UHGV virus genome: UHGV-1591674 | Length of the DNA: 11,865 bases | Direction: 5' to 3' (one strand) | Origin: a virus | Part shown: piece after piece, positions 5,878 to 8,720 of the stretch | Layout of the letters: the number at the start of each line of letters is the position of its first letter | Position numbering within the stretch: the first letter of the stretch is position 1 | Made by a program: the position numbers and the translations under genes | Notes under the pieces: generated by a model | What the model was told of the DNA's origin: nothing | The model's input: only the letters and a program-made list of their open reading frames with translations | The model's database searches: none

Positions 5878-5916
5878 ACAAATAATTAATGCATTGAATG
5901 AATTGTCCATAGAATG

Positions 5917-5948
5917 AAAAACCATCTTATCACGATGGTTTTTTTATT
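5917..5948 (+). terminator. Rho-independent terminator
   Basis: Stem ACCATC (5921-5926) / GATGGT (5934-5939) with loop TTATCAC, flanked by an A-run upstream and a T-run downstream (5940-5946). Marks the transition from GC-rich phage genes to the AT-rich insertion. Confidence 0.6.
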
Positions 5949-6806: not shown

Positions 6807-7061
6807 TTGTTAATACTGCAACCACATGAGCTTTACCGTGCTCAGGGCTTCCCTGAGTGGTACATCATTGACCAGGACTATCGGGGCAAGAAGTACGCAA
6901 AAGACAAACAAGTTGCCCGCTGTGGTAACGCCGTACCACCGCCGTTCGCTGAAGCGCTGGTCCGGGCTATTTACCGGAGCTTTGTCAGCAGAAAGAAATT
7001 GCAGCTTAATGTCCGAGTTTCAGAGCAGGGTGTAACAAATCCTGCTACTTCAATGACGTAG
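6807..7061 (+). pseudogene. C5-cytosine DNA methyltransferase C-terminal fragment (motifs IX and X only)
   Basis: PHELYRAQGFPEWY and RCGNAVPPPFAEALVRAI correspond to C5-methyltransferase motifs IX (LQGFP) and X (GNAV), matching the C-terminus of the full enzyme at 8717..10210 (RLQGFPD...AIGNSMAVPV). No motifs I, IV or VI precede it. A second diverged copy of its 3' end lies at about 7452-7580. Confidence 0.55.
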
Positions 7062-7070
7062 ATTCAAACT

Positions 7071-7079
7071 TGATATAAT
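7071..7079 (+). promoter_or_regulatory. Extended -10 promoter (TGATATAAT) for the small gene 7108..7344
   Basis: TG at 7071-7072 followed by a perfect TATAAT at 7074-7079, about 30 nt upstream of ATG 7108. Shine-Dalgarno GAGGA at 7096-7100. A hairpin AGGCTC (7080-7085) / GAGCCT (7099-7104) overlaps the ribosome-binding site. Confidence 0.4.
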
Positions 7080-7107
7080 AGGCTCTTCACAACACGAGGA
7101 GCCTAAA

Positions 7108-7344
7108 ATGCACCATTACATGATCCCTATCAACGGAACTGTTCACCTGATTAAGACTGATTCTCTAATCCCTGAAGGGACTGAGTATAGCTTTGAAGGA
7201 GAAAGTCTAATCTGCGCTCATGCCACTTTTAAATCTGGGACGTATGGCTTCCTGATACCAAAGGGAAATCAGTTGAATAGAGAGCATGCGTTCTGGCATG
7301 TAAGTGGAATTCACCCTAACCCCCTGGAAATAGATAAACCGTAA
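7108..7344 (+). CDS. Hypothetical small protein (AT-rich moron, unknown function)
   Basis: 78-aa ORF with a strong ribosome-binding site and its own promoter-like element. Lies between two diverged copies of a methyltransferase 3' end. No recognisable motif. Confidence 0.6.
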   Translation: MHHYMIPINGTVHLIKTDSLIPEGTEYSFEGESLICAHATFKSGTYGFLIPKGNQLNREHAFWHVSGIHPNPLEIDKP

Positions 7345-7447
7345 TCCACATGCCATCGCCCTGAACACACGGTGGCATGCATCCGGCACTTTAACGGAAA
7401 CGTTAAAGTGCAAAATACAATTCGAGCAATATTCAACCAGTTAAAGA

Positions 7448-7587
7448 TGGCGAATACCACCGCCATTTCGTGCCTTCTGCTGTTTCTATTACCCATTACG
7501 CTAATCCTGCCCAAACATCAGCTCGCTGAGGCGCTGGTTAGGGCTAACCTACAGGAGCTTTGTCAGCATAAACAAATAGCGGCGTAA
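7448..7587 (+). pseudogene. Degenerate second copy of the C5-methyltransferase 3' end
   Basis: DNA at 7452-7461 (TACCACCGCC) and 7522-7580 aligns with 6933-7005 at roughly 80% identity, interrupted by a ~50-bp insertion. The track ORF 7372..7587 ends in AEALVRANLQELCQ, mirroring AEALVRAIYRSFVS in the 6807..7061 fragment. Confidence 0.45.
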
Positions 7588-7604
7588 TAAAACATTGCTA
7601 ATTC

Positions 7605-7632
7605 AACCCACTACGGCGGGTTTTCTTTTTTT
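7605..7632 (+). terminator. Rho-independent terminator
   Basis: Stem AACCC (7605-7609) / GGGTT (7618-7622) followed by TTCTTTTTTT (7623-7632). Confidence 0.5.
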
Positions 7633-7694
7633 CCTACTGACAGAAAATTAACAATTTGTGCTCTTAAAACGTTGATCATTTTCGTGCATAGGTA

Positions 7695-7714
7695 TACTGT
7701 ATAAAAATACAGTA
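7695..7714. promoter_or_regulatory. LexA box (SOS operator) overlapping the dinI-like promoter
   Basis: Perfect 20-bp palindrome TACTGTATAAAAATACAGTA matching the CTGT-N8-ACAG LexA consensus. It lies 19 nt upstream of the ATG of a DinI homolog. -35-like TTGATC at 7672-7677 and -10-like TATACT at 7693-7698 overlap the box. Confidence 0.75.
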
Positions 7715-7732
7715 TATGCAATGGAGGCCATT

Positions 7733-7969
7733 ATGAAAGTTGAATTAACCATTGATCGCATGAAAGAACTTCCTAAAGGCGCGGTACCAGCACTGGAGAA
7801 AGAATTGCTTAAGCGTCTGAATGATCACTATGACAATTGCAGACTCACAATCCGCCGTGCCGGTTCAGATGGGTTAAGTGTTTTTGGCGGTGACAAGGAC
7901 GACAAAAAGAAAATTGAATCAATCCTCCAGGATACCTGGGAAAGTGCAGACGAGTGGTTTGTTAACTAA
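7733..7969 (+). CDS. dinI: DinI-family DNA-damage-inducible protein
   Basis: GGAGG at 7723-7727 five nt before ATG 7733. Product ends ILQDTWESADEWFVN, closely matching E. coli DinI (ILQETWESADDWFV). A LexA box sits immediately upstream. Confidence 0.85.
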   Translation: MKVELTIDRMKELPKGAVPALEKELLKRLNDHYDNCRLTIRRAGSDGLSVFGGDKDDKKKIESILQDTWESADEWFVN

Positions 7970-8273: not shown

Positions 8274-8417
8274 GTTGGGTTATACTCAACACGGGTCTGA
8301 ACAGCCCGCTGAGTAACACTGCGCCAACCGGGAAAACGCGATGGCGCATAAAACTGAATTACCCCATTCACACCGTTCCTTCGTGAGCGGTGTCGCTGTT
8401 TGTGCTGGTGGTGCAGC

Positions 8418-8720
8418 ATGAGCAGATCAAAGACCAAAGCCGAAAAACTTCATCTTTCCCGCGTAGCCGGGCTGGGTTGTATTGTCTGCAAAAACCTGAA
8501 GCTGGGTGAAACCCCAGCAGAGATACATCACATCCGAACTGGCCAGGGAGTTGGCCAGCGCGCTGACAATTTCAAAGTTATTCCTCTTTGCCCAATCCAT
8601 CACCGTCAGGGCGGACACGGCATAGCCATTCATGCTGGCCGCCAGTCCTGGGAAAACAATTTCGGTACTGAAACAGAGTTGCTGGTGCAGGTTCTCTACG
8701 AACTGGGGGAATCAGCGTGA
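8418..8720 (+). CDS. Ref-like recombination-enhancement HNH-type nuclease (small phage HNH protein)
   Basis: Start at ATG 8418 (GGTGGTG upstream). Product contains CIVC...EIHHIRTGQG...CPIHHRQGGHG, a CxxC/HH pattern typical of Ref-family HNH proteins. Stop overlaps the GTG start of the methyltransferase (GTGA at 8717-8720). Confidence 0.65.
   Translation: MSRSKTKAEKLHLSRVAGLGCIVCKNLKLGETPAEIHHIRTGQGVGQRADNFKVIPLCPIHHRQGGHGIAIHAGRQSWENNFGTETELLVQVLYELGESA

Follow-up and report, generated by a model that had tools for sequence, protein, structure and literature searches.

The locus described here raises the question of how a small gene lying inside the early operon of a temperate phage is expressed, and what its product might do. 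The gene encodes a protein of 78 amino acid residues and is called ORF78 below. The window, by which we mean the whole stretch of 11,865 nucleotides of the virus genome UHGV-1591674 that was analysed, comprises the immunity, replication and nin regions of a lambda-like prophage, with its genes on the + strand (for the cI-like repressor, see Table 1). The O-like and P-like replication genes are followed downstream by small accessory genes, the C5 methyltransferase and RusA. The cassette carrying ORF78 sits in the accessory block of the nin region, which is the rightward early operon. The closest sequenced phage is mEp237, which is 92% identical across positions 6813-7800. Since a complete C5 methyltransferase gene is found in addition to a decayed remnant of another, the prophage has one live and one dead locus of this enzyme. 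The GC content of ORF78 is 43%, that of the window 50%, that of the accessory block 41-47%, and that of the HNH gene and dinI approximately 44%. The description of ORF78 as AT-rich in the first-pass annotation is correct relative to the window, but the shift is mild and is found in the accessory block (about 44%) as well. The positions of the features are presented in Table 1.

Table 1. Features of the window, with positions, strand and the evidence or remarks for each
Feature	Position	Strand	Evidence or remarks
cI-like repressor	49-456	minus	followed by Cro and a YdaT/cII-like gene
HNH-like gene, 260 aa	6012-6794		phrog_6544; weak HNH matches
Methyltransferase remnant, last ~70 codons of a 662-aa C5 gene	6795-7009	+	tblastn; Pfam PF00145 C-terminal match
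Conserved promoter block	7036-7079	+	near-palindrome, -35-like ATGACG, extended -10
Leader hairpin	7079-7105	+	5' (anti-SD) arm 7079-7088, loop 7089-7095, 3' arm 7096-7105
ORF78, gene of a 78-aa protein	7108-7344	+	ATG start; phrog_30079
Two 3' UTR hairpins	7349-7379; 7386-7411	+	I1, I3; without U tract; the second has 11 bp and a GAAA loop
Second, fossil copy of the methyltransferase 3' end	7447-7588	+	direct repeat of 6934-7010; D1-D3; blastn, 82-88% identity; tblastn LAEALVRANLQELCQHKQIAA; KL53 alignment
Intrinsic terminator	7605-7632	+	terminator scan; KL53 alignment; first one downstream of ORF78
RecA-dependent-nuclease-like gene	8400-8720		PF16786; directly before the second C5 methyltransferase
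Second C5 methyltransferase, complete, 497 aa	8717-10210

The coordinates given in the first-pass annotation for the extended -10 element, the reading frame and the inverted repeat all proved correct on re-examination. The reading frame of 78 codons does have the strong Shine-Dalgarno (SD) sequence claimed for it, GAGGAG at 7096-7101, at a spacing of 6 nt from the ATG at 7108. The PHROG profile listed in Table 1 matches residues 1-77 of 78 with E = 2.3e-47 and has no annotated function. The protein has 96-97% identity with gp47 of mEp237 (YP_007111420) and 42% identity with WP_016247098. All of these are of the same kind as ORF78 and are annotated as hypothetical or of unknown function. Intact copies of ORF78 occur in 24 IMG/VR contigs, 9 metagenome contigs, phage mEp237 (as gp47) and, among complete E. 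coli genomes, in AR_0118 and approximately 30 others. In all, more than 30 viral or metagenomic contigs carry it.

Five clades of the family can be distinguished: the window/mEp237 type (clade 1), WP_016247098 (clade 2, from E. coli H5 and MSB1_9D), P0004 (Citrobacter), P0007 and P0009. Their proteins are mutually 37-55% identical, and the clade-2 protein also belongs to phrog_30079 (E = 1.2e-49). Between clades the synonymous sites are saturated, with pS of 0.7-0.9 and pN of approximately 0.38. The ratio dN/dS, calculated for those pairs that allow it, is 0.13-0.25, the value for E. coli H5 against Citrobacter (L004 and L032) being 0.25. The invariant residues include Y4, P7, K16, P22, G24, G31, C36, H38, Y46-G47, G53 and P70-N-P-L73. 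ORF78 is a genuine gene under purifying selection. An exhaustive HMMER profile search of 1.8 billion representatives returned approximately five true ORF78 clusters, so the family is rare, and the metagenome scan revealed no clades beyond the five. ORF78 is thus a rare accessory gene of lambda-like prophages.

Several observations on database records of the family may be added. In AR_0118 (L002, 3109-3345) and approximately 30 other RefSeq E. coli genomes the intact clade-1 gene has no RefSeq/PGAP annotation, the 600-bp match having no feature under it at all; the clade-2 homologue is annotated as WP_016247098. A small, conserved gene is thus missing from the RefSeq annotation of about 30 complete genomes of E. 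coli. Protein P0006 (142 aa) has a YdaT-like N-terminus fused to residues 21-78 of ORF78. It probably arose by a deletion in a decayed prophage, with loss of the replication genes.

Searches with the protein itself gave no indication of its function. The second AlphaFold model (pLDDT 81.7) consists of five beta strands followed by a C-terminal helix, and fold searches with the predicted structure returned no match. Pfam, NCBIfam, PADLOC and PDB profile searches were likewise empty. PHROG 30079 is the only match, in agreement with the earlier statement that the protein has no recognisable motif. Two groups of hits were rejected as homologues: the matches of GTYGYLxP in large beta-repeat proteins (HMMER), which are a resemblance at the level of a motif, and a Cyclobacteriaceae match (L029) together with a metagenome match (L046), both of which lie inside large unrelated proteins. 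The suggestion that ORF78 is an immunity or anti-defence protein found no backing in PADLOC or among known folds. The only hint comes from the neighbourhood, where two small proteins, DinI and theta, act by binding to host factors; one may guess that the product of ORF78 is likewise a small binder of a host protein.

The control region upstream of ORF78 is more informative. The sequence TGATATAAT at 7071-7079 is a perfect TGnTATAAT extended -10 element, present as the first-pass annotation had claimed, and is the sole TGNTATAAT in the window. Such a site is not rare taken alone: 0.23 are expected per window, and 43 of 200 shuffles contained at least one. The site was missed by a scan of the window for the classical -35/-10 consensus, since a -35 hexamer at the required spacing of 16-18 nt is lacking. 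A -35-like ATGACG is found at 7053-7058, 15 nt from the -10, and was used by the annotators of mEp237, who marked a promoter here. Extended -10 promoters work without a -35. The TGNTATAAT element occurs in 5/5 clades, 28-36 nt before the ATG. In the most divergent locus, L030, it takes the form TGGTATAAT and is retained although no alignment is possible for the remainder of the intergenic region.

A comparison of clades 1 and 2 gives 93-98% identity for the block of 44 nt at 7036-7079, against 83% for the methyltransferase tail just upstream, 62-76% for the leader and 51-53% for the ORF78 coding DNA. This conservation could in part reflect recent recombination at a mosaic joint and not selection. 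In locus L031 the promoter, the leader and ORF78 are found together in a different region, upstream of xis/int and without a methyltransferase, the homology beginning approximately 55 nt before the ATG. This arrangement indicates that the promoter travels with ORF78. Taken together, these features mark a putative sigma-70 promoter of the extended -10 type at 7071-7079. In addition, the block contains a near-palindrome, TACTTCAATGACGTA at 7046-7060, in the position of a -35, where L031 (approximately 1225-1260) has the perfect palindrome ACGTCAGATGACGT. The near-palindromic block may be a candidate binding site for a regulator or a recombination linker.

The leader that follows can fold into a hairpin. 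The inverted repeat AGGCTC / GAGCCT reported earlier is present, and the RNA stem is longer than was described: positions 7079/7080-7088 pair with 7096-7104/7105 in 9-10 bp, including one G-U, around a loop of 7 nt. The folding energy in the window is -13.4 to -15.5 kcal/mol (z -5.6 to -7.2), none of 200 and none of 500 shuffles folded as well, and the hairpin ranks sixth among the 27-nt local folds on both strands of the 11.9-kb window. In these in silico foldings every base of the SD is paired in the stem, with a probability of being unpaired close to zero. The stem is significant in six of the seven distinct leader variants, with z of -7.2 in the window and -3.1 to -7.9 in the five others. 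The exception is L030, the leader that has diverged most, where the stem falls short of significance (z -0.8); L008/L011 carry a disrupting G-to-T change.

The loop differs between clades (ACAACAC and AAUCGACAA(A), respectively), but the arms persist. A test for covariation found compensatory double changes in 0 of 10 pairs and one-sided changes in 4, with 84.6% of the cells paired. The one-sided changes are switches between G-C and G-U and would still allow the RNA to pair; the 3' arm, being the SD itself, is under constraint in any case. An Rfam search of the window gave no match. Two other roles for the hairpin were considered and rejected: it is not a terminator, since a U tract is absent after the stem on both strands, and it is not an RNase III site, since a stem of 10 bp is too short.

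The relative positions of promoter and hairpin allow a regulatory mechanism to be proposed. RNA polymerase normally starts 6-9 nt after the -10, and in every variant that has the stem the 5' arm lies within 0-10 nt after the -10 hexamer. From the usual distance, a local start is predicted at approximately 7085-7089, inside or after the 5' arm. Counted from the -10, the first A beyond this arm comes at 9-11 nt in all variants with the stem, namely the window, L001, L008, L004, L032 and L031. Simulated RNAs starting 6-10 nt past the -10 fold with -0.6 to -3.6 kcal/mol (-2 in the window) and have the SD free; those containing the 5' arm fold with -9 to -16 kcal/mol and have the SD paired. With the anti-SD arm occupying the stretch from the -10 to the expected start, a read-through RNA would bury the SD and a locally started RNA would not.

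The mechanism would then operate as follows. The cassette promoter would belong to the sigma-70, extended -10 class (TGATATAAT), would lack a usable -35 and would be followed by a short leader, in which the 10 nt right after the -10 hexamer are the complement of the SD. Long transcripts, whether from pR, from the methyltransferase gene or from the HNH gene, would contain both arms and form a stem of approximately -14 kcal/mol, and since this stem would bury the SD, ORF78 would remain untranslated on them. Read-through RNA is to be expected, because the terminator scan detected no terminator between the HNH gene and ORF78. The upstream reading frame ends at 7061 (the ancestral frame at 7009), which appears to be too distant for a terminating ribosome to melt the stem. 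Transcripts started locally would begin inside or after the 5' arm, form no stem and be translated. The level of ORF78 would be set by its own promoter and insulated from the strong early lytic transcription running through the cassette, and expression from this promoter would presumably take place in the lysogen too.

The hairpin probably keeps ORF78 untranslated on the long phage transcripts; we infer this effect on translation, and the expression in the lysogen, from the arrangement of the sites. The first-pass annotation had already proposed a promoter of the gene's own and a hairpin hiding the SD on read-through transcripts only. At the level of sequence, the proposal is supported by the -10 in 5/5 clades, by the position of the arm and by folding; covariation (0/10) lends it no support. 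The regulatory reading is plausible and has good support in geometry and conservation, although unproven.

The alternative that survives best is that ORF78 is an ordinary nin gene served mainly by the long pR transcript, with TGATATAAT being weak, vestigial or fortuitous and the hairpin simply damping translation of a protein required in low quantity, so that no distinction between two kinds of transcript would be involved. The missing -35, the failure of the scan tool to call a promoter and the fact that one TGNTATAAT per window is not rare by chance would all fit this reading, as would the orientation of the gene, which is the same as that of the operon at every locus, the lack of covariation in the stem and its weakness in L030. 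However, a stem of -14 kcal/mol that pairs the whole SD would nearly silence the gene if read-through were the sole message. Moreover, the -10 is retained in 5/5 clades even where the flanks cannot be aligned, the promoter block is more conserved than both of the flanking coding sequences, and promoter and ORF78 move together in L031. We therefore regard a gene dependent mainly on pR as rather unlikely, though it is the competitor to be taken most seriously.

Gating of a gene by a promoter placed within a hairpin has precedents, and it is useful to compare ORF78 with them. In gene e of T4 and in I-TevI, the ribosome-binding site is concealed in the long early RNA that reads through into the gene, while transcripts from a promoter situated immediately upstream are missing the 5' strand of the stem and are translated (PMC3014915). 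The ORF78 leader has the same geometry: its -10 abuts the 5' arm and its SD lies inside the 3' arm. The stem sequesters the SD in silico, and the start, placed by its usual distance from the -10, is predicted to fall inside or past the 5' strand. The two differ in their promoters. Those of T4 are gp55-dependent late promoters (TATAAATA) that provide timing in the lytic cycle, while ORF78 has no gp55 late promoter and carries instead a host sigma-70 extended -10 in a temperate phage. For this reason the likely purpose in ORF78 would be insulation and lysogenic expression and not late timing, and the leader, which belongs to a lambdoid prophage, works like the T4 cases without being a member of the T4 system. 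There is no sequence relationship between the T4 leaders and that of ORF78, for which the mechanism is a prediction.

A second precedent is IS10, in which fold-back inhibition is described as a protection against external promoters (Davis, Simons and Kleckner 1985, cited in PMC13181058). On that description, IS10/Tn10 resembles the ORF78 cassette in that a mobile unit shields a gene and that only the read-through RNA has an upstream arm able to pair with the ribosome-binding site. It differs in that the protected gene is the transposase and the arm lies in the end of the element, whereas ORF78 is a phage accessory gene that moves by phage recombination and not by transposition.

The borders of the cassette are defined by remains of methyltransferase genes. 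In tblastn searches, for which the full-length methyltransferases of L004 and L030 were the queries, the DNA directly upstream was recognized as the 3' end of such a gene, frameshifted near 6969 and with its ancestral stop codon TAA at 7007-7009; the ORF78 cassette starts directly after it. The open reading frame at 6807-7061 is this frameshifted 3' end and was rejected as a gene. Downstream of ORF78 there is a second, fossil copy, and the two 3'-end copies are direct repeats that are 82-92% identical. The fossil marks what we take from the sequence to be the right-hand recombination joint of the cassette.

A four-way alignment shows homology up to the methyltransferase stop, after which it splits into two alternative cargos. 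In E. coli KL53 the methyltransferase stub is followed by the terminator and dinI, and in the near-isogenic E. coli MSB1_9D by the promoter, ORF78, a terminator and a theta/HolE-like gene. In the window the two cargos stand in tandem. The methyltransferase stop codon is, by this alignment, a mosaic joint.

The presence of alternative cargos at this joint accounts for the linkage of ORF78 with the methyltransferase, which could otherwise be taken to mean that ORF78 is a functional partner, modulating the activity or specificity, of the upstream C5 enzyme of 662 residues. ORF78 does lie downstream of a methyltransferase 3' end in 33 of 34 loci (the exception is L031), and the gene is full-length in seven of them (L004, L010, L011, L012, L025, L028 and L030). 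However, most loci retain only a stub of 20-120 codons next to an intact ORF78, the L031 cassette has no methyltransferase, methyltransferase genes or stubs also occur without ORF78, and the protein has no similarity to Vsr, to C-proteins or to other known methyltransferase partners. A partnership of this kind is improbable.

In the window, the first terminator lies 260 nt past the ORF78 stop; in clade-2 loci a similar intrinsic terminator is found approximately 35 nt past the stop, and in prophages without the cassette the corresponding terminator comes directly after the methyltransferase stop. Between ORF78 and the fossil copy there are two hairpins in the 3' UTR, which together fold with -31.7 kcal/mol (z -5.3). 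The hairpin at 7349-7379 is kept in L008 with G-U-compatible changes, and that at 7386-7411 is degraded in mEp237-type loci. These hairpins may stabilise the 3' end of the RNA.

A moron is an independent transcription unit consisting of an extra gene among conserved phage genes, with its own promoter and terminator and a different GC content (PMC3594210). Like the prophage morons HK97 gene 15 and lambda bor and lom (PMC3594210), ORF78 is an extra gene with a candidate promoter and a terminator of its own, a GC content somewhat below that of the window and a pattern of presence and absence. KL53 and MSB1_9D differ by it at the same junction between the same flanks, and a downstream terminator exists both in clade 2, about 35 nt away, and in the window. 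With presence and absence, a candidate promoter of its own, a terminator and lower GC, the cassette appears to fit the definition of a moron. Differences should also be noted. The terminator in the window is 260 nt downstream, past the fossil methyltransferase fragment, so that the unit is less compact than a textbook moron, and the GC shift is modest and common to the neighbouring accessory genes. We give about even chances to the full reading, in which 7010-7632 is a moron-like cassette with its own promoter, a conserved gene and a hairpin that gates the read-through RNA.

The inverted repeat of the leader could in principle be read at the level of DNA, as an operator for a dimeric repressor that overlaps the transcription start, and not as an RNA hairpin. 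The repeat lies just downstream of the -10, a classic position for a repressor, and there is a second near-palindrome at the position of the -35 (7046-7060), which is perfect in L031. However, the extended stem contains a T-G pair that is acceptable in RNA and mismatched in DNA, the differences between clades are switches between G-C and G-U, and the 3' arm is simply the SD. In the operator search, the repeat did not resemble the region between cI and cro in this prophage, and repeats of the motif TGACGTAG in the window did not exceed chance. An operator is very improbable here, and the RNA hairpin is the reading we retain.

In the weakest proposal, made in the first-pass annotation, ORF78 would serve the HNH-like gene as an accessory factor in immunity, anti-defence or regulation, and this can hardly be upheld: the genes adjoin each other in the window, L005, L006 and L034 and both are below the GC content of the window, but these are 4 of 34 loci, the other 30 having no HNH-like gene, the methyltransferase remnant lies between the two genes, the conserved upstream neighbour of ORF78 is the methyltransferase 3' end, PADLOC is empty for both genes, and the HNH-like gene seems to have been inserted independently, in place of codons 1-591 of the methyltransferase. 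The distribution of neighbours over the 34 loci indicates that ORF78 is not an accessory of the HNH gene and is unlikely to need the methyltransferase.

The HNH-like gene itself deserves a short comment. It replaces the methyltransferase codons with an identical junction in the four loci, one of which, L034 (1770-2552), carries the other ORF78 clade. A strong intrinsic terminator is found just upstream of it, at 5916-5944. Its sequence context suggests a nuclease, mobile or free-standing, that entered the methyltransferase gene in a separate insertion.

As to its wider meaning, the ORF78 cassette belongs to known kinds (the moron, and insulation by a promoter placed in a hairpin) and encodes an orphan protein; nothing points to a new class of system. 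If confirmed, it would be a clear example, with sigma-70 and in a temperate phage, of a promoter set inside a hairpin, a device familiar from T4 late genes and IS10. It would then show how an accessory gene that is passed on horizontally can maintain an expression level of its own when it lies within an early operon with strong transcription. Its practical value would lie in predicting which prophage genes are made by lysogens. A more far-reaching and rather doubtful extension is that the cassette is a portable, self-insulating moron, in which the anti-SD arm occupies the gap between the -10 and the start, a lysogen-expressed protein of 78 residues and of a new fold acts on a host replication or repair factor, in the manner of the neighbouring DinI and theta, and the block of 44 nt adds a further regulator. 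Were it true, the expression of a horizontally moving gene would be independent of the operon in which it lands.

Two neighbouring genes may be noted for their control regions. In E. coli H5, the theta (HolE-like) gene has a stem running from TATAAT to the SD (L004, 3402-3445; -14 kcal/mol, z -3.5), and in the Citrobacter theta leader (L032, 4287-4337) the stem is lost (z -0.2). Stems that connect a -10 with an SD can therefore be evolutionarily labile. Either the design recurs among the cassettes of the nin region, or such stems are labile. The dinI gene (7673-7969) has an SOS-type control region of its own, in which the LexA box TACTGTATAAAAATACAGTA at 7695-7714 is perfect and overlaps a -10 of the sequence TATACT. 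Its start is likely the ATG at 7733, preceded by the SD GGAGG at 7723-7727, rather than the ATG at 7721.
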